Shown here: positions 1 to 7,485 of the stretch, piece after piece | How the letters are laid out: every line of letters begins with the position of its first letter | Numbering within the stretch: the stretch's first letter is position 1 | Assembly: GCA_020629115.1 (NCBI GenBank) | Contig: JAHDDY010000008.1 | Coordinates: 3,916 to 67,915, forward strand | Source of the DNA: Paracoccaceae bacterium | GTDB taxonomy: Bacteria > Pseudomonadota > Alphaproteobacteria > Rhodobacterales > Rhodobacteraceae | Length of the DNA: 64,000 bases | Direction: 5' to 3' | Program-made: the position numbers and the translations under genes | Notes under the pieces: generated by a model | What the model saw: only the letters and a program-made list of their open reading frames with translations | Told to the model about the DNA's origin: nothing | Database searches by the model: none

Positions 1-507
1 CGGACGGGCCTGTCGTCGGTCTTCGCCACGCTCGGCGAACCGATCCTCGATGCCGCCTCGCTCGGGGAGGCGGGGCTAAGGGCCGTCATCGTCGATACGG
101 GCGTCCTGTGCCAGTACGCGGCGTTGCGGCGGCTGGTCGATCAGGCCGTCCTCGCCGATCTGTCCGCCCAGCTCGGTCTCGATCTCACGGCTCACGATGC
201 CCGCCGGGCCACGGGTGGCGAGGTCATCGATCTCGCCCGGGCGCTCGCCTGTCCCGAACCGGGACCGTCCGGCGACGTCGAGACGCTCATCCATGCCATC
301 CTGGATGACGGACTGAGATGCTGGACCTGCTGGGTTCACGCGCGACCGCCGGGAAGTACGCGTTTCCTCGAAGCGCTTGTCCCGGCGTTGCCCGGCGCTG
401 GCCCGGTTATTGCATCCGAACCCTGCAAACCCCGCGATTGCGCCCGTCGCGCCGCGCTCTTCCAGGCGCGGTTGACGAAGGCGTCCGAGGAGCGGGGCGG
501 AACCTAG
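1..507 (+). CDS. Partial (5'-truncated) hypothetical protein immediately upstream of sctL; the position fits an SctK-like cytoplasmic T3SS component
   Basis: Frame 1 is open from base 1 to TAG at 505-507. GC3 is very high over 1-300 and lower over 300-507. It ends 12 nt before sctL. No recognisable motif, so the function is positional inference only. Confidence 0.35.
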   Translation, partial: RTGLSSVFATLGEPILDAASLGEAGLRAVIVDTGVLCQYAALRRLVDQAVLADLSAQLGLDLTAHDARRATGGEVIDLARALACPEPGPSGDVETLIHAILDDGLRCWTCWVHARPPGSTRFLEALVPALPGAGPVIASEPCKPRDCARRAALFQARLTKASEERGGT

Positions 508-519
508 CGGGGCGATGCG

Positions 520-1155
520 ATGCAGGACGAACCGAACGACGCGGCCCCTCCGGCTCGGAGCGATGCCGTGTCGAAGATTCTTCGAGCGCAGGATTTCGAG
601 GCCCTCGCCAGCGCGCGGACCGGAATAGACCAGGCGCATTCCGAGGCCGACGCCATCGTCGCCGCCGCCCACGAGCAGGCGCAGGCCATCCGCGACGAGG
701 CGCGTGCCGAGGCCGAGGCCGACCGCGCCGCCCTCGTCGCCGAATACGCCGGGGCGATGCACGCGCAGATCGCGGCGATGCCGGACAGGATGGCGGATCT
801 CGCCATGGCCTGCCTGCGCCGGGTCCTCGACCCCATACCCGATGCGAAGGCCGTGGCCGGTGCCGTCGCGGCGACCCTTCGCGAGACCGATATCGCAGGC
901 GGGGCCGTGCTCGTCGTCGCGCCGCCCCTGATGCATACCCTGCGCGAGCAACTGGAGCGACGGGGCATCCCGGCGACGGTCATCGAGGTGCGCGGCGATC
1001 CGGAATGCCCCCTCGAATCGAGCGTCCTGCGCTCGCCCTTCGGGGATATCGAACTGGGCATCGAGCCGCAGTTGCGCGCCATCGAGCGCGGCCTGCGCGC
1101 CGCCGCGCGGAATGGCGACCCGCAGGGTAGCGACCCGCAGGGAGACACCGCATGA
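520..1155 (+). CDS. sctL: T3SS stator protein SctL (FliH/YscL family)
   Basis: 211 aa. Ala/Glu-rich coiled-coil N-terminal half (AHSEADAIVAAAHEQAQAIRDEARAEAEADRAA) typical of FliH/SctL. The stop overlaps the ATPase start (ATGA at 1152-1155). Confidence 0.7.
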   Translation: MQDEPNDAAPPARSDAVSKILRAQDFEALASARTGIDQAHSEADAIVAAAHEQAQAIRDEARAEAEADRAALVAEYAGAMHAQIAAMPDRMADLAMACLRRVLDPIPDAKAVAGAVAATLRETDIAGGAVLVVAPPLMHTLREQLERRGIPATVIEVRGDPECPLESSVLRSPFGDIELGIEPQLRAIERGLRAAARNGDPQGSDPQGDTA

Positions 1156-2522
1156 CGGCCCTCGCCGACAGCGTCGCGCGCCTTGGCCCGCTCGCAGCCC
1201 TCGACCGATTCGGCCAAGCGGCCCGGACCATGCCACTGCGTCCCGTCATGGGGCGCGTGTCCAAGGTCTCGGGCACCATCGTCGAGGCGGTGCTCTCCGG
1301 GGGACGACTGGGCGAGATCTGCGCGCTGGATGAGCCGGGGGAGGGCGCGGGGCCGCCCCGCCTGGCCGAGGTCGTGGGCTTTCGCGACGGGGTGGCGCTG
1401 CTCGGGGTCATCGGCGACATGACGGGCCTGTCCTCGCGCACGCGGGTCACGCCGACTGGCGTGCCGCTGTCGGCCCCGGTGGGCGAGGGGCTGCTGGGCC
1501 GCGTGCTCGACGGTCTCGGCAATCCGCTCGACACCCGCACGCGCGGCCCCCTCGCCGCCGCCGACCGCCGCCCCGCCGAGGCCGCGCCGACCGATGCCCT
1601 CGCCCGGATGCCCGTCACCCAGGCGATGCCGCTCGGCATCCCGGCCCTCGACGCGCTCAACGTTATCGGCGAGGGCCAGCGCGTGGGCCTCTTCGGCGAG
1701 CCGGGGACGGGCAAGTCGACCTTCGTCTCCGCCCTCGCCAAGGCAGCCTCGGCGGATGTCGCGGTCATCGCCATGGTGGGCGAGCGCGGGCGCGAGGTGA
1801 CGGAGTTCATCGAGGATACGCTCGGGGCCGAGGGCCTGGCTAAATCCGTCATCGTCGCGGCGACCTCCGACCGCCCGGCCATGGAGCGCATCAAGGCCCC
1901 CTTTATCGCCGCCGCCATCGCCGAATCGTTCCGGGACCAGGGCAAGCGCGTCCTCTTCCTGATGGACAGCCTGACCCGCCTCGCCCGCGCCCAGCGCGAG
2001 ATCGGCCTCGCCGCCGGCGAGCCGCCCGCCCGCCGCGCCTTTCCCCCGTCCGTCTTCGCGATGATGCCCAAGCTCATCGAGCGGGCCGGGGTCGCGCCGG
2101 GGGGCGGGTCGATCACGGGGTTCTACACGGTGCTCGTCGAGGATGACGGCGTGGGCGATCCCATCGCCGAGGAGGCCAAGTCCCTGCTCGACGGTCACGT
2201 CGTGCTCTCGCGCAAGCTCGCCGAGGCGGGCAAGTTCCCGGCGGTCGACGTGCTGGCGAGCCGCAGCCGGGTCATGGCGCGGGTCGTTGACGCCGATCAT
2301 TCCCGCGCCGCCGAGCGCGTGCGCGGGCTTCTCGCCCGCTATGACGAGATCGAGCTGCTGCTGCGCATGGGAGAATACGCGCGCGGGTCGGACCCCCTCG
2401 CCGACGAGGCCATCGACAAGAAGGAGCGGCTCGACGCCTTCATCCACCACGCGCTCGACAAGCCCGAAAGCTGGCAGACGATCACGGACGCGCTGTCCTT
2501 TCTGGCCACGCCCGACCGATGA
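1152..2522 (+). CDS. sctN: T3SS ATPase SctN (FliI/YscN family)
   Basis: 456 aa. Walker A GEPGTGKST. Hallmark VLFLMDSLTRLARAQREIGLAAGEPP segment, plus ITGFYTVLVEDDGVGDPIAEE and GHVVLSRKLAEAGKFPAVDVLAS. Confidence 0.95.
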   Translation: MTALADSVARLGPLAALDRFGQAARTMPLRPVMGRVSKVSGTIVEAVLSGGRLGEICALDEPGEGAGPPRLAEVVGFRDGVALLGVIGDMTGLSSRTRVTPTGVPLSAPVGEGLLGRVLDGLGNPLDTRTRGPLAAADRRPAEAAPTDALARMPVTQAMPLGIPALDALNVIGEGQRVGLFGEPGTGKSTFVSALAKAASADVAVIAMVGERGREVTEFIEDTLGAEGLAKSVIVAATSDRPAMERIKAPFIAAAIAESFRDQGKRVLFLMDSLTRLARAQREIGLAAGEPPARRAFPPSVFAMMPKLIERAGVAPGGGSITGFYTVLVEDDGVGDPIAEEAKSLLDGHVVLSRKLAEAGKFPAVDVLASRSRVMARVVDADHSRAAERVRGLLARYDEIELLLRMGEYARGSDPLADEAIDKKERLDAFIHHALDKPESWQTITDALSFLATPDR

Positions 2523-3013
2523 CCCCCGCCCAGCTCGCCGAGGCCCTGCGCGTGCGCCGCCGCCGGGAGGAACGCGCCCTCGCCACATTGCAGCAGGCGC
2601 GGGCCGTGGAGACCCAGGCCGCGGCGGCGCTGGCCGAGGCGCGGGGCGCGCTCTCCGCGTTCGACGCGCGGCTGGAGGCGGGTCTCGACGCCTTCCGGAA
2701 GCGCGCCCGCATGGGCGTCACGCCCCAGGGCCTGACCGGCATGCGCGCCTTCCACTCGGATCAGCTCAAGGCCCGCGAGGGCTTTCAGGAACCCATCGCC
2801 ATGGCCGAAGGCGCGCTCGCGCTGGCGCAGGACCGCGTGGCCGAGGCGCGCTTTCTCTGGCAGCGGGCAACCCAGGCGGCAGGGAACTTGCAGGAGATGG
2901 GCGACGGGATGACCCGTGCCGCCGCCCGCGACCGGGAGCGGCGACAGGAACAGGATCGCGACGAGCTTGCCGCGACGCGCGCGGCCCGTCTGGCCGGGGA
3001 AGGGAGGGACTAG
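2519..3013 (+). CDS. sctO: T3SS stalk protein SctO (FliJ/YscO-like coiled coil)
   Basis: 164 aa, Ala/Arg/Glu-rich predicted coiled coil. ATGA overlap with sctN, and in the conserved position after the ATPase. Confidence 0.6.
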   Translation: MTPAQLAEALRVRRRREERALATLQQARAVETQAAAALAEARGALSAFDARLEAGLDAFRKRARMGVTPQGLTGMRAFHSDQLKAREGFQEPIAMAEGALALAQDRVAEARFLWQRATQAAGNLQEMGDGMTRAAARDRERRQEQDRDELAATRAARLAGEGRD

Positions 3014-4084
3014 ATGGATACGCTCGATTTCCAGACCGACGACCGCCTCATGATTCGCCCTCTCGACCTGCCGTCGGTGCGCCCGCAAGCGGCCTGGCGC
3101 AACCGTGCGCTGTCCCGCGCCCGCGCCCCCGTCCCGGTGCTGGAGGATATCGCCGTATCGCTCGTGCCCGACACGCGGCTCGACTGGATGGGGGCGGGAA
3201 AGCGCGTCTCCATCGCGTTCTCGGCATCGGGGGAGGCGGGCTTCGTCACCACCGTCGTTCCCGTCGTCCAGCGCCTGCTTGCGCGAGCCGACCTGCCCGT
3301 CCGGCCAGATGCGCTCGACGCGGAGCTTGCCGCGCTGGCCATCGAGACCGTCCTGACGGAGCCGGTGGAGGCGCTCGAAGGGATGCTGGGCCGGTCCATC
3401 GCGCTTCACGCGCTCGATACCGTCTCGGATCGTCCCGATCTGGCGCATCTGTGTTTCGAAATGCGCATGGACGGGGACGGTCCGGCCTATCCGGGCACGA
3501 TCCACGCCCCCGCCGCGCTGCTCTCGGTCCTCGCCCGCGGCTGGATGGACCGGCCGGCCCTCGACGCGCCGCGGGAGGACGTGCGGCTGCCGCTCTCCTT
3601 CCGCGTCGCCTACACCGACCTGACCCTCTCGGCCCTGCGCAGCCTGCGGACGGGGGACGCGATGCTGTTCGACCGGATCGCGATGCAGGGCGGCGCGGCG
3701 GCGGCGCTGGGCGAGGCGATGCATAGCAGCGTGCGATTCGACGAAGAGGGCAACCTTCACCTCGCGGAGCCGTTCGCTGCCCCCGAACCTTACGGAATGG
3801 GAGAATTCCTGATGACAGACGACGATCCCGAACAGGCCGTACGCGCCGTCTCCGATGCCGATCTTGACGATCTGCCGGTGCGCCTCGTCTTCGAGGTCGG
3901 CCGGACCGACATGAGCGTCGCCGACCTGCGCGCGCTGACGGTCGGCGCGCCCCTGCCCCTCGACCGCCCCGCCTCCGCCGCGGTGCAGATCCTCGCCAAC
4001 GGGCGGCGGATCGGCGCGGGCGAGATGGTGATGATCGGCGAACAGCTCGGCGTGCGCATAACGCAGCTCAACGGCCATGGCTGA
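3014..4084 (+). CDS. sctQ: T3SS cytoplasmic ring / sorting platform protein SctQ (FliN/SpoA C-terminal domain)
   Basis: 356 aa. C-terminal SpoA-type segment LPVRLVFEVGRTDMSVADLRALTVGAPLPLDRPASAAVQILANGRRIGAGEMVMIGEQLGVRITQL. 8-nt overlap with sctR. Confidence 0.8.
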   Translation: MDTLDFQTDDRLMIRPLDLPSVRPQAAWRNRALSRARAPVPVLEDIAVSLVPDTRLDWMGAGKRVSIAFSASGEAGFVTTVVPVVQRLLARADLPVRPDALDAELAALAIETVLTEPVEALEGMLGRSIALHALDTVSDRPDLAHLCFEMRMDGDGPAYPGTIHAPAALLSVLARGWMDRPALDAPREDVRLPLSFRVAYTDLTLSALRSLRTGDAMLFDRIAMQGGAAAALGEAMHSSVRFDEEGNLHLAEPFAAPEPYGMGEFLMTDDDPEQAVRAVSDADLDDLPVRLVFEVGRTDMSVADLRALTVGAPLPLDRPASAAVQILANGRRIGAGEMVMIGEQLGVRITQLNGHG

Positions 4085-4733
4085 GGAACTGAACGCCAAC
4101 GTCCTGTCGCTCATCATCGTGGTGATGCTGCTCGGCTTCCTGCCCTTCGTGGCGGTTGCCGTGACGGCCTTCGCGAAGATCACGGTCGTCCTGCTGATCG
4201 TGCGCAACGCGCTCGGGGTGCAGCAGACGCCGCCGAACATGGTGATCTACGGCATCGCGCTGGTGCTGACCGTCTACATCGCCGCGCCGCTGGCGGCGCA
4301 ACTTCAGGGCATCCTGGCCGACCCGGCGCTGAACTTCGAGACGCTGGACGACTGGCTCGTCGTCTACGAGCAGGGGGTCGAGCCGATACGGGAATTCCTG
4401 CTGCGCCACGCGCGGCTCGACGACCGGGCCTTCTTCATGGAGGCGACGGCCTCGGTCTGGGGGCCGGAGATGGCGCAGGGCGTCGACAGCGAATCGCTCG
4501 CCGTCCTGGTGCCGGCCTTCCTCGTGTCGGAGCTGACCCGTGCGTTCGAGATCGGGTTCCTGCTGTACCTGCCGTTCCTGGCCATCGACCTCATCGTCTC
4601 GGCGGTGCTGATGTCGCTCGGCATGATGATGGTCTCGCCTATCATGATCGCGATTCCCTTCAAGCTGTTCCTGTTCGTGGCGGTCGACGGCTGGTCGCGC
4701 CTCGTCCAGGGCCTCGTCCTGAGCTACACATGA
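4077..4733 (+). CDS. sctR: T3SS export apparatus protein SctR (FliP family)
   Basis: 218 aa. FliP hallmark LVSELTRAFEIGFLLYLPFLAIDLIVSAVLMSLGMMMVSP. Confidence 0.95.
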   Translation: MAEELNANVLSLIIVVMLLGFLPFVAVAVTAFAKITVVLLIVRNALGVQQTPPNMVIYGIALVLTVYIAAPLAAQLQGILADPALNFETLDDWLVVYEQGVEPIREFLLRHARLDDRAFFMEATASVWGPEMAQGVDSESLAVLVPAFLVSELTRAFEIGFLLYLPFLAIDLIVSAVLMSLGMMMVSPIMIAIPFKLFLFVAVDGWSRLVQGLVLSYT

Positions 4734-4746
4734 GGAGGACGCACGG

Positions 4747-5016
4747 ATGACGGAGGACGTTCTCGCCCGCTACCTGCTGCTCGCGGCCCTGGCCAGCATG
4801 AAGAGCGCCGCCCCGCCGCTGATCGTGGCGGCCATCGTCGGCTTCATCGTCGCGCTCTTCCAGGGCGTGACGCAGATTCAGGACCAGAGCCTGCCGATCA
4901 CGCTCAAGATCCTCGTGGTCGGCGCGACCTTCCTCCTGTTCGGGGCGGCGCTGGCCAGCCCGGTGGTGATCCTCGCGGACGAGGCGCTGCGCATCTTCCC
5001 GACGGCCTCGCGATGA
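4747..5016 (+). CDS. sctS: T3SS export apparatus protein SctS (FliQ family)
   Basis: 89 aa, two hydrophobic helices, and QGVTQIQDQSLPITLKIL typical of FliQ/SctS. Confidence 0.9.
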   Translation: MTEDVLARYLLLAALASMKSAAPPLIVAAIVGFIVALFQGVTQIQDQSLPITLKILVVGATFLLFGAALASPVVILADEALRIFPTASR

Positions 5017-5099: not shown

Positions 5100-5906
5100 G
5101 TGCGGCCCATGCTTGAGTTGGTGGAATTCATCCTGCCCCTCATCGAGGCCGGTGCGCTGACCTTCGCGCGGCCCCTGGGCTTCATCATCGCCTTCCCGCT
5201 CTTCTCGTGGCTCGGGTTGCAGGGCATGATCCGGAACGTCACGGCCCTGGCCATCGGCGCGCCGTTCCTGACGCTGGTCTACACCCAGCTCGCCGCCTCG
5301 CCCGAGCCGCTGCCGGCCGAATACATCATGCTCCTCGCCGGCAAGGAATTCCTCGTCGGCCTGACGCTGGGGGTGGTCCTCGGCGTCCCGTTCTGGGGAG
5401 CGGAGATGGCGGGGGCCTATGTCGACGTGTACCGCGGCAGTTCGGCGGCCACGGTGGTCAGCCCGGACGCGATGGCGGAGCCGCTGGTCTCGGGCGCGAT
5501 CTTCTCCATCGCGCTGGTGGCGATCTTCCTCGCCATGGGGGGGCTGCGCATGGTGCTCGGCGTCCTCTACGAGAGCTACGACATATGGCCGTTCTTCCAG
5601 ATCGTGCCGCGTATCTCGGGCGACCTGTACCCGGTCTTCCTCGAAATCCTCGGCACCGTCGCGCGCATCGCGCTGACGCTGGGCGCGCCGCTGCTCATCG
5701 CCATGTTCGTCGCCGAGCTGGCGCTGGCCTTCACCAGCCGCTTCGCGCCGCAGATCAACATCTTCGATGCCATGCTCTCGCTCAAGAACATCGTCTTCCT
5801 CGTCGTCCTGCCGCCCTACCTGTACTTCCTCGCCCGCTACTACGGGTCGGAGGTGCTCGACCTGCCGGGCCTGACGGATATCCTGCGCCGGGTGGTCGGA
5901 CCATGA
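5100..5906 (+). CDS. sctT: T3SS export apparatus protein SctT (FliR family)
   Basis: 268 aa polytopic membrane protein in the FliR position. Start uncertain: GTG at 5100 or ATG at 5109. 4-nt overlap with sctU. Confidence 0.9.
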   Translation: MRPMLELVEFILPLIEAGALTFARPLGFIIAFPLFSWLGLQGMIRNVTALAIGAPFLTLVYTQLAASPEPLPAEYIMLLAGKEFLVGLTLGVVLGVPFWGAEMAGAYVDVYRGSSAATVVSPDAMAEPLVSGAIFSIALVAIFLAMGGLRMVLGVLYESYDIWPFFQIVPRISGDLYPVFLEILGTVARIALTLGAPLLIAMFVAELALAFTSRFAPQINIFDAMLSLKNIVFLVVLPPYLYFLARYYGSEVLDLPGLTDILRRVVGP

Positions 5907-6961
5907 GCGGCGATACCTCGGAGGAAAAATCCCTACCGCCCTCGGAGAAGAAGCTCCAGGAGGGCCGCAAGAAGGGGCAGATCGCCAAGAGCGCCGACAT
6001 GGTCTCGGCGATCGTGATGATCTTCCTCGTCGCCTATCTCGTCCTCGGCTGGTCCGTGATCGAGACCGCCTTCGCGCGGATGTTCGACACGGCGGGGCTG
6101 ACGGCGGCGCGCGGAGGGCCTGATTCGTGGAACATCGCCATCCGCGATACCTGGGCGGCGATGGGCACCATCATGCTGCCGCTCTACGGCGTCTCCTTCC
6201 TCGCCATCTTCCTCGGCTCGGTGATCTCCAACAAGGGCATCGTCGTCTCCTTCGATCAGGTGAAGCCCGACCTGAAGAAGATCCACCCCGTCGAGGGCTT
6301 CAAGAAGATCTTCAGCATCCGCAACTTCATCGAGTTCCTCAAGGCGCTGGTGAAGAGCATGTTGATCCTGCTCGTCCTGGCCGTGATCGGGTGGTGGGGC
6401 TTCCGGTCGATCATGCGGGCGCCGCTCTGCCGCCCGGACTGCTCCGACGACGTGCTGATGATCGTGGTCGTGCCGCTCGTCCTCGCGGCCATGGCGCTTT
6501 TCCTGATTTCCGCGCTCGTGGACATGACGCTTCAGAAATGGCTGTTCACCCGCGACATGAAGATGACCCATTCCGAGATGAAGCGGGAAATGAAGGAGAT
6601 CTACGGCGATCCCATGGTGCGCCGCGCCCGCAACGAGGCCCGGCGCGGGGATTCGGGGGGCGGCGGATCGGGCAAGGCGTCCAGCTTCCTCGATTCAACC
6701 GCACCGACGATTCTCGTCTGCTCGGGCGGGCAGATCGCGGTCGGCCTGCGCTACGTGCCCGGCGAGACGCCCGCGCCGATCGTCGTGGCGAAGGGCACCG
6801 GCGCACGGGCCGCCGCCCTGATCGCCGAGGCGGTGGGCATCGGAGCACCGGTCACGAACGACCCGGATCTCGCCCTGGCGCTGCTCCAGCAGGGTCGAAT
6901 CGAGACATTCGTGCCGGAGTCCCTTTTTAAGGAAGTGGCCCGCGTCATGAGAAAATCGTAG
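5903..6961 (+). CDS. sctU: T3SS export switch protein SctU (FlhB/YscU family) with a non-canonical autocleavage site
   Basis: 352 aa from ATG 5903, inside track ORF 5207..6961. N-terminal EKSLPPSEKKLQEGRKKGQIAKS, linker HSEMKREMKEIYGDPMVRRARNEARR, and C-terminal IAVGLRYVPGETPAPIVVAKGTG. The NPTH position reads SGGQ. Confidence 0.9.
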   Translation: MSGDTSEEKSLPPSEKKLQEGRKKGQIAKSADMVSAIVMIFLVAYLVLGWSVIETAFARMFDTAGLTAARGGPDSWNIAIRDTWAAMGTIMLPLYGVSFLAIFLGSVISNKGIVVSFDQVKPDLKKIHPVEGFKKIFSIRNFIEFLKALVKSMLILLVLAVIGWWGFRSIMRAPLCRPDCSDDVLMIVVVPLVLAAMALFLISALVDMTLQKWLFTRDMKMTHSEMKREMKEIYGDPMVRRARNEARRGDSGGGGSGKASSFLDSTAPTILVCSGGQIAVGLRYVPGETPAPIVVAKGTGARAAALIAEAVGIGAPVTNDPDLALALLQQGRIETFVPESLFKEVARVMRKS

Positions 6962-7290
6962 ATTGTATAATACCAGGATTCCTGACCGAATTCGTTTTAG
7001 TAGAATGTATCTTATTGACACTTAAGGCGACCTCACGTACGTATGAGCCATGGGAACGATACGTCGAAATGTTCGAAAGTAGCACGGTGACTGGAGAACT
7101 CTCTTCGGTTCTGAAGGCCGACTCGAATGGGGAAGCCATGCGCCGTTACCAACGGCAACTGGCGGATGCGTCGAAGCGGGTGGAGGAGCTTCCCAGAGGG
7201 GCAATCAAAGACACGTCAACCAAGGCCTTGCAGGCCGGATCGACTCTCCTCCCGGTTTTGTGGAGAGACATCAACAGGAGTTAGACTATC
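6962..7290 (+). promoter_or_regulatory. AT-rich spacer between sctU and the 64-aa gene; probable internal promoter/regulatory region
   Basis: The first 60 nt are roughly one-third GC by hand count, against a visibly much higher surrounding GC. Contains TAGAAT (7001-7006), TTGACA (7015-7020) and SD AGGAG (7276-7280). No clear -35/-10 pair at canonical spacing. Confidence 0.4.
7015..7284 (+). CDS. Questionable small ORF (89 aa from TTG; in-frame ATGs at about 7068 and 7138) inside the AT-rich spacer
   Basis: Open frame, but GC3 is only about 55% against about 90% in neighbouring genes. No motif recognised. It may be a non-coding leader. Confidence 0.2.
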   Translation: MTLKATSRTYEPWERYVEMFESSTVTGELSSVLKADSNGEAMRRYQRQLADASKRVEELPRGAIKDTSTKALQAGSTLLPVLWRDINRS

Positions 7291-7485
7291 ATGGCACAGA
7301 ACCTTTCCAGCATCGGCAACCAGACCGGCTCCACCGGCACCTCGGGCGACAACGGCTCCGACGACGCCGTCGCATCCATGGAAGCCGCTTTCGACCGCGC
7401 CATCGCCAAGGCGGCACAGGTCACCGAGAAGCGCATGGAGGGCGGCTCGGCTCTCGACGCGGCCCGGACCCGCCTCTCGAACTGA
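7291..7485 (+). CDS. Small (64 aa) T3SS-associated protein; candidate secreted needle/pilus-type subunit
   Basis: SD AGGAG lies 10 nt upstream of the ATG. Gly/Ser/Thr/Asn-rich N-terminus followed by a predicted helix (DDAVASMEAAFDRAIAKAAQVTEKRM). Followed by a strong intrinsic terminator. The coding call is fairly secure; the function is inferred. Confidence 0.6.
   Translation: MAQNLSSIGNQTGSTGTSGDNGSDDAVASMEAAFDRAIAKAAQVTEKRMEGGSALDAARTRLSN

Follow-up and report, generated by a model that had tools for sequence, protein, structure and literature searches.

The window considered here is a stretch of 64,000 nucleotides from contig JAHDDY010000008.1 of a Paracoccaceae bacterium, and its left end takes in two thirds, the right-hand part, of an intact Rhc-type type III secretion system (T3SS) cluster from a Neomegalonema-like alphaproteobacterium. 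The subject of this study is the sctU gene of that cluster, whose product carries the residues SGGQ where the SctU/FlhB family has the autocleavage motif Asn-Pro-Thr-His (NPTH). Cleavage of SctU and FlhB proteins proceeds by cyclisation of the Asn at the N|P bond, and N-to-A substitution abolishes it. Canonical cleavage is predicted not to take place in the window SctU, because the scissile Asn-Pro is missing. The reading that we favour, and consider probable, is that the cluster belongs to the Rhc-type family as a member from the Neomegalonema lineage, and that its SctU is intact, is not cleaved and has no part in the SctP/NPTH switch. Selection maintains the window SctU, which is neither an artefact nor a pseudogene, and a comparison with its relatives shows it to be typical of its lineage and no peculiarity of this locus.

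The NPTH position of SctU

The window SctU matches Pfam PF01312 Bac_export_2 (FlhB/HrpN/YscU/SpaS) over positions 1-333 of the 335-position profile (E 2.5e-69; 234.5 bits against a cut-off of 24.4). Its score of 251.4 bits against the NCBIfam SctU equivalog TIGR01404 falls under the cut-off of 358, although TIGR01404 is nonetheless the best-scoring model. Nucleotides 6722-6733 of the forward strand read TCG GGC GGG CAG in the SctU open reading frame (ORF) and encode S274, G275, G276 and Q277. A sequence-only reading of the window had set these residues opposite NPTH, and that register is correct: in HMMER comparisons with solved FlhB and SpaS chains, 'lvcsggqiavglry' lies opposite 'iitnpehfsvalry', 'vvtnpehfsvalry', 'vvtnpthysvalqy' and 'vvmnpthiaigiyf', and MAFFT alignments of 85 and 163 homologues reproduce it. 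A functional Asn-Pro elsewhere in the linker had been named as a possibility, but a search across the whole window SctU found no Asn-Pro dipeptide, and N244 is the sole Asn in residues 215-300. With HMMER and MAFFT in agreement and no Asn-Pro in the protein, another register or another Asn-Pro cleavage site is ruled out.

Structure prediction gives the same picture of the loop. In an AlphaFold2 model built from the 85-sequence alignment (mean predicted local distance difference test score, pLDDT, of 85.4, and 88-94 over residues 261-352), SctU has a four-helix membrane domain, a linker and an alpha/beta C-terminal domain. Strands are predicted at residues 270-274 and 278-283, with the SGGQ region as a tight beta1-beta2 turn (275-277) at the position of the PTH loop. 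The only disordered parts are the N-terminus and residues 251-255, where pLDDT falls below 50. The latter lie in a Gly-rich linker insertion (DSGGGGSGK) that makes the linker about 7 residues longer than in other SctU proteins and includes a conserved 'SGKAS'. Foldseek searches of the Protein Data Bank with the model return the C-domains of YscU, EscU, CT091 and FlhB at a root-mean-square deviation of 1.2-1.4 A over 86 residues (TM 0.82-0.86), and also FlhB in the FliPQR-FlhB complex. Uncleaved mutant C-domains take the top ranks, as is to be expected because only those are single chains across the loop.

An identical 352-residue SctU is encoded in three independent Logan read-set assemblies. 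Compared with an 80%-identical orthologue, the ratio of nonsynonymous to synonymous substitution rates (dN/dS) is 0.147 for the whole of SctU and 0.139 for the C-domain, at a dS of about 1, and the C-domain values of other SctU pairs lie between 0.10 and 0.25.

Extent of the NPTH-less family and correlated changes

Genomic relatives were taken as the best 80 loci on contigs from one genome per species, and NPTH is missing in 80 of 80. Genera among the NPTH-less loci are Neomegalonema, Pseudomonas, Stutzerimonas, Phyllobacterium, Mesorhizobium, Sinorhizobium and Bradyrhizobium, together with Brucella endophytica, Geminicoccales and others. The comparison with related clusters proposed in the sequence-only reading gave a uniform answer, with NPTH in none of about 46 clusters whose SctU is 47-80% identical to that of the window. 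The closest genomes are Neomegalonema metagenome-assembled genomes (55-76% identity) and N. perideroedes DSM 15528 (44%), and the Neomegalonema loop follows the consensus C-S/A-G-N/G/T-Q/E/D, which is fairly conserved inside the clade. Plasmid copies without NPTH are found in Klebsiella, Paracoccus, Microvirga and B. guangzhouense, and reference proteins without it include RhcU (pNGR234a), RhcIIU (pNGR234b) and the R. etli Mim1, M. huakuii and B. barranii copies.

The same picture emerges from protein clusters. A HMMER scan of 1.84 billion cluster representatives yielded 366 proteins at E<=1e-30, and the loop lacks N-P in 141 of the best 150 representatives of 50%-identity clusters, which were the ones examined at the loop. 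These NP-less loops are about 3-6 residues long and rich in Gly, Asp, Ser and Asn, and the NP-less family spans more than 140 clusters at 50% identity in the Alpha- and Gammaproteobacteria. In the MAFFT alignment of 163 sequences, N and P are invariant in the 28 canonical members and missing in all 135 members of the other group.

Phylogenetic analysis places the two groups apart. Neighbour-joining separates 41 NP-less from 13 NP-containing sequences in 199 of 200 bootstraps, and the window SctU, NGR234a RhcU and NGR234b RhcIIU all fall inside the NP-less clade (199/200). The split is recovered in 192 of 200 bootstraps when the linker and loop are masked, and in 127 of 200 from the membrane domain alone; the trees do not fix the position of the Neomegalonema subgroup within the NP-less clade. 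One ancestral loss of NPTH is the simplest account of the clade. Two proteins that are 37% identical to the window SctU have N-P-G at the loop (P0100, ICNPGVAAV; P0101, IANPGSLAI), and they may be cleavage-competent intermediates or reversions. The arrangement in which subgroup II and Neomegalonema alone lack NPTH while subgroup I has it was dropped, as RhcU of pNGR234a is itself NP-less. Bradyrhizobium japonicum plasmid pS11L-3 (locus L084, 289-1353) encodes a SctU in which NPTH is present (ALISNPTHIAVALYY) and which falls with the canonical outgroup; it probably belongs to a non-Rhc system, so that some bradyrhizobia probably have a non-Rhc T3SS too.

Two further observations concern homologues outside the immediate lineage. 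Among FlhB-like proteins, P0069, P0075, P0079, P0080, P0083, P0084 and P0088 have the variant loops NPTE, NPTT, NPSG and GPGS, and four of them carry the name FlhB at JGI; the loop His is not universal in flagellar-type homologues, nor is the Asn, which one partial sequence lacks. An IncF plasmid of Klebsiella aerogenes (L087) and K. pneumoniae plasmids (H62, H63) carry a Rhc-II-like NP-less SctU (36% identity) adjoined by an FHA-domain gene. These are conjugative IncFIB/IncFII plasmids, blood isolates being among the strains that carry them, and Klebsiella was not to be expected as the host of a rhizobial-type T3SS.

The loop is not the only part of the switch to have changed. The LARxLY motif is degenerate in the window SctU (Table 1), and its Arg position holds Arg in 11 of the 135 NP-less sequences, compared with Arg (20) or Gln (8) in the 28 NP-containing ones; at the Tyr position the counts for Tyr or Phe are 11 of 135 versus 24 of 28. 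HrcU Y318D, a suppressor that maps to LARxLY near the PTH loop, permits late-substrate secretion in the absence of the T3S4 protein HpaC, and HpaC binds the NPTH motif of HrcU (PMC3040844). The C-domain as a whole also differs, in that at a membrane-domain identity of 25-35% the C-domain identity is 47% among NP-containing proteins and 33% among NP-less proteins, with ratios of C-domain to N-domain identity of 1.2-2.1 and 0.88-1.25, respectively. On these identities, the C-domain is faster-evolving in the NP-less clade than in its canonical relatives.

The partner of the loop appears to be missing as well. The sequence-only reading had seen no SctP-like gene between sctO and sctQ, and none fits there, since the last base of sctO (3013) directly precedes the first of sctQ (3014). 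Furthermore, Pfam and NCBIfam give no T3S4/FliK/YscP-like domain in the cluster ORFs of the window or in the upstream part of the 80%-identity relative L090. Gazi et al. 2012 (PMC3574062) reported that none of the Rhc subgroups has a hrpP/yscP-like gene between hrpO and hrcQ, and the absence of sctP from Rhc systems is thus already published. That both components of the switch are missing or replaced, as the earlier reading had it, therefore stands for the window; it does not stand as a local peculiarity, since the condition is common to the Rhc lineage, including the active NGR234 RhcU.

A probably non-cleaving SctU and its alternatives

In the explanation proposed here, the common ancestor of Rhc-type systems would have exchanged the strained N-P-T-H loop that joins beta1 to beta2 for a short turn rich in Gly and Asp, represented by SGGQ in the present case. 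Lacking an Asn-Pro bond, SctU would escape canonical Asn-cyclisation cleavage and remain a single chain, as the chemistry and the N-to-A mutants of homologues suggest. We infer that the NPTH loop, the Arg and Tyr of LARxLY and the ruler gene were lost as one interacting module, namely the switch that runs from SctP to the PTH loop of SctU. The C-domain has probably been kept for a structural and docking role at the export gate, and, more speculatively, the order of substrates could come from elsewhere, be it transcriptional timing, chaperones or the SctX/SctY-like pair beside sctV.

This explanation bears on what cleavage is for. The view that autocleavage is the established basis of the substrate-specificity switch, which the sequence-only reading had adopted, is dated: cleavage of SpaS happens constitutively, without regulation, and does not act as the signal for switching; its part is only to bring the protein into the conformation required for it to be competent to switch (PMC4620466). 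The proteins that S. fredii NGR234 secretes include NopA and NopB of the pilus, NopX of the translocon and the effectors NopL and NopP (PMC10970691). Because Rhc-I systems with an SctU of the same type export pilus, translocon and effectors, multi-class secretion without cleavage is possible in the family.

A broader version of the explanation, to which we give somewhat less than an even chance, is that Rhc systems are natural 'switch-less' machines, whose ancestor dropped the NPTH loop, LARxLY and the ruler gene at once. The C-domain of SctU would then be a structural part of the gate only, and the substrates would be ordered by an undescribed mechanism, possibly involving the SctX/SctY-like pair or the small ORFs by sctU.

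Several points weigh against a non-cleaving SctU that stands apart from the SctP/NPTH switch. No cleavage assay was found in the literature for any Rhc-type SctU, and for that reason it is by inference that we describe the window SctU as uncleaved and outside any SctP-driven switch. Members of the P0100/P0101 type may still cleave, and conservation of the Neomegalonema loop may point to a role beyond forming a turn. The phylogenies are neighbour-joining only, and the comparison of constraint uses non-independent pairs, with an NP-containing set that is mostly flagellar-type (FlhB-like). A divergent SctP analogue may sit beyond the window edge, whether in the missing left part of the cluster or in the rest of the genome. 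In addition, the short ORFs of the cluster (62, 64, 71, 97, 125 and 147 aa), in which family scans gave no usable match, carry no assigned function.

The most serious alternative, which we nevertheless regard as unlikely, is that a non-cleaving SctU is locked in one export mode, and that the system handles a single substrate class, such as a surface pilus or adhesin, with no injectisome hierarchy. Consistent with this, the hierarchy of secretion is altered in non-cleavable SpaS (PMC4620466), the window shows no recognisable gene for a translocon protein or effector, and the host genus is listed as a free-living, filamentous one of the sludge type. An alpha-Rhc-II system has likewise been tied to stress adaptation and not to host injection (PMC5826200). 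However, Rhc-I systems secrete all three classes of protein with the same NP-less type of SctU, and because only part of the cluster and of the genome is visible, the absence of effectors weighs little.

There is a smaller chance, one that we would call slim, that SctU is still processed at another site or by another mechanism, being cut in two either by autoproteolysis in the linker or by a cellular protease that attacks the Gly-rich stretch there. It is true that SpaS engineered to be cut by an external protease works as wild type (PMC4620466), and that linkers of the Neomegalonema clade contain an additional Gly-rich segment, predicted to be disordered and with a conserved SGKAS. This insertion is missing from the other NP-less subgroups, however, and SctU has Asn-Pro nowhere, the length and sequence of the loop vary freely over the family, and the model shows the hairpin as a simple tight turn.

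Decay of the cluster, with SctU as a non-functional remnant, is very improbable. The low TIGR01404 score (251 against an equivalog cut-off of 358), the faster-evolving C-domain and the complete loss of that domain from Rhc III RhcU are what decay might leave behind, but every core gene is intact, with operon-like overlaps, dN/dS lies at 0.1-0.25 (dS being saturated), the family extends over more than 140 clusters at 50% identity in two proteobacterial classes, and Rhc-I is experimentally active. A sequencing or assembly error that removed the motif, which the sequence-only reading had listed among its caveats, is ruled out for practical purposes by the continuous frame, the three independent read sets that give the same protein, and the same replacement in every relative.

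The non-cleaving SctU favoured here has consequences for how the family is described. NPTH autocleavage of SctU and FlhB is presented in reviews as a conserved T3SS feature (e.g. PMC6140923), and no report of RhcU-type proteins lacking NPTH, or of RhcU cleavage, was found in the open-access literature; the absence of NPTH at the level of the family may be under-recognised, and priority is not claimable. RefSeq names the NP-less SctU proteins 'export apparatus switch protein', a label that probably overstates their role. The large natural lineage without NPTH and SctP, which counts at least about 140 clusters at 50% identity and includes genetically tractable rhizobia and Pseudomonas, is a ready system for asking what purpose cleavage serves and how a substrate hierarchy arises without the ruler and switch pair. 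The window locus itself is ordinary; it is the family-wide co-loss that is moderately surprising, and it is experimentally tractable.

The surrounding cluster and comparison with known systems

T3SS genes occupy the first 11.4 kb of the window (Table 1) and are followed by housekeeping genes, with about 52 kb of unrelated genes in all. The core T3SS genes in the window are all intact and overlap in an operon-like manner. Signs of Rhc membership are the Y4YQ_C domain in SctD, the NGR234-like gene order and, upstream in L090, an N-terminal-only secretin, a SctK/HrpB4-like protein and SctJ. That upstream part of L090 holds an N-terminal-only secretin gene, a TPR protein gene, three small ORFs, sctJ and the HrpB4/SctK-like gene. 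The secretin gene (226 aa) matches positions 2-145 only of the 463-position SctC model, as NolW/RhcC1 would, and no RhcC2 was seen; this region lies outside the window. The protein of L090:3990-4697 matches TIGR02560 HrpB4 (E 3.2e-06) and, weakly, Pfam HrpB4/YscK, and the L090 orthologue of sctO has a weak FliJ match in addition.

Table 1. Features of the T3SS cluster in the window (aa, amino acids; L001, L003 and L090 are loci used for comparison)
Feature	Coordinates	Strand	Evidence
SctK/HrpB4-like, C-terminal 168 aa, cut by window edge	1..507	+	54% identical to L090:3990-4697
sctL (NolV-like stator)	520..1155	+	Pfam T3SS_SCTL 23.5 bits vs cut-off 23.3; HrpE weak
sctN ATPase	1152..2522	+	Pfam ATP-synt_ab E 7.7e-78, T3SS_ATPase_C E 3e-17
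sctO-like stalk protein (164 aa)	2519..3013	+	Pfam YscO-like E 1.9e-4, below cut-off; position of y4yJ in NGR234
sctQ	3014..4084	+	Pfam FliMN_C E 8.6e-23; SepQ_C in precomputed hits
sctR	4077..4733	+	Precomputed Pfam FliP
sctS	4747..5016	+	Precomputed Pfam Bac_export_3
sctT	5109..5906	+	Precomputed Pfam Bac_export_1
sctU (352 aa), Rhc-type, without autocleavage motif	5903..6961	+	PF01312, TIGR01404, AlphaFold2, Foldseek
Gly-rich linker insertion D250-SGGGGSG-K258 in SctU, Neomegalonema clade only	6650..6676	+	Alignment, pLDDT
SGGQ, beta1-beta2 turn in NPTH position	6722..6733	+	HMMER and MAFFT register, AlphaFold2 strands
L323-A-L-A-L-L328, degenerate LARxLY counterpart (Arg and Tyr both replaced by Leu)	6869..6886	+	Alignment
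Conserved small ORF (71 aa), nopC position of NGR234	7069..7284	+	Codon-like conservation
64-aa ORF at nopA (pilus subunit) position	7291..7485	+	Position only; 64-aa gene kept in L001, L003, L090
sctD (Y4yQ-like)	7593..8465	+	Yop-YscD_ppl_3rd E 5.7e-10; Y4YQ_C 29.4 bits vs 27; Yop-YscD_cpl weak
125-aa ORF, SctX position	8606..8983	+	Gene call in L001 and L090; no family match
TPR protein, SctY-like chaperone	8980..9348	+	TPR matches; L090 orthologue
sctV	9345..11435	+	Pfam FHIPEP E 1.2e-194

Small ORFs lie downstream of sctU. The 71-aa ORF (MFESSTVTGELSS...LLPVLWRDINRS) fills the presumed intergenic gap between sctU and the 64-aa ORF and is missing from public gene calls. It shows third-position-type variation across five Neomegalonema loci, its reading frame is intact in four of six relatives, and an invariant TTGAC precedes it in the Neomegalonema loci (at about 7012-7016); no Pfam family was found for it. 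The 64-aa ORF has no Pfam or NCBIfam match and gives no BLASTP alignment to NGR234 NopA, so that as a candidate NopA homologue it was set aside and positional equivalence alone remains. Nearer to sctV, the L090 orthologue of the TPR protein matches NCBIfam NF052415 T3SS_chap_SctY below the cut-off (E 1.7e-12). The order 125-aa ORF, SctY-like TPR gene and sctV corresponds to yscX-yscY-yscV of Yersinia, and classical accounts of Rhc systems are not known to list a SctX/SctY pair.

The canonical SctU/FlhB proteins (YscU, EscU, SpaS, HrcU and FlhB) and the window SctU share a Pfam family, a topology, a fold and a place after sctRST. The canonical ones are set apart from the window protein by NPTH autocleavage, by LARxLY, by a cognate SctP/FliK/HpaC and by a C-domain that is more conserved than the N-domain. 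Engineered non-cleaving variants (YscU N263A/D, EscU N262A/D and P263A, an inactive CT091 mutant and SpaS N258A) have the same single-chain C-domain fold as the window SctU, but they are point changes in proteins that evolved with cleavage, they keep PTH and LARxLY, and their function is impaired, whereas in the window lineage the loop, the adjoining surface and the partner SctP have changed jointly and naturally.

Among Rhc systems, RhcU of Rhc III, on plasmids of Rhizobium etli, R. phaseoli and R. leguminosarum, belongs to the same superfamily and likewise leaves the canonical switch domain unused. It ends after the linker, at about 272 aa, in contrast to the window SctU with its constrained C-domain. 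Examples are found on a plasmid of R. leguminosarum Vaf-108 (L086, 1522-2340) and in R. phaseoli and Rhizobium sp. (H55-H59), and no split-off coding sequence for the C-domain was found within 1.4 kb downstream of Rhc III RhcU. In R. leguminosarum Vaf-108, an IS5 transposase gene lies near the truncated rhcU.

RhcIIU/HrcIIU of Rhc II, found on pNGR234b and in the second T3SS of Pseudomonas, lacks NPTH (LLIGEEGAVSVGIRY; MIGTTDGWVIGVRY; pNGR234b ...AVLLIGEEGAVSVGIRYVRDETPVP) and has no sctP (Gazi et al. 2012, PMC3574062). It is 34-37% identical to the window SctU, and its function is largely unknown. It differs in forming a separate, well-supported subclade with a Gly/Asp/Trp-type loop, and in NGR234 the genes around its sctU stand in a different order.

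The fullest comparison is with RhcU of Rhc I from S. fredii NGR234 (pNGR234a, WP_010875099.1), which is NPTH-less too (loop ...ATLVYRGTAVLIGLRY / ...ATLVYRGTAVLIGLRYVRGETGVP), has a degenerate LARxLY (LAHQLM) like that of the window SctU and, as in the window, has no sctP between y4yJ and rhcQ. The order on pNGR234a is nolW, nolB, nolT, nolU, nolV, sctN, y4yJ, sctQRSTU, nopP, nopC, nopA, y4yQ, sctV and a TPR gene, so that NGR234 and the window have in common rhcN-y4yJ-rhcQRSTU, then nopA-y4yQ-rhcV with a TPR gene. Taken together, the window and L090 match the Rhc order rhcJ-nolU-nolV-rhcN-y4yJ-rhcQRSTU and nopA-y4yQ-...-rhcV, with the two blocks contiguous here. NGR234 RhcU is about 32% identical to the window SctU, its loop is one residue shorter and it has no Gly-rich linker insertion. 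Furthermore, the NGR234 system has nopP and nopC between rhcU and nopA, and it is plasmid-borne, regulated by flavonoids and TtsI, and of proven symbiotic function.

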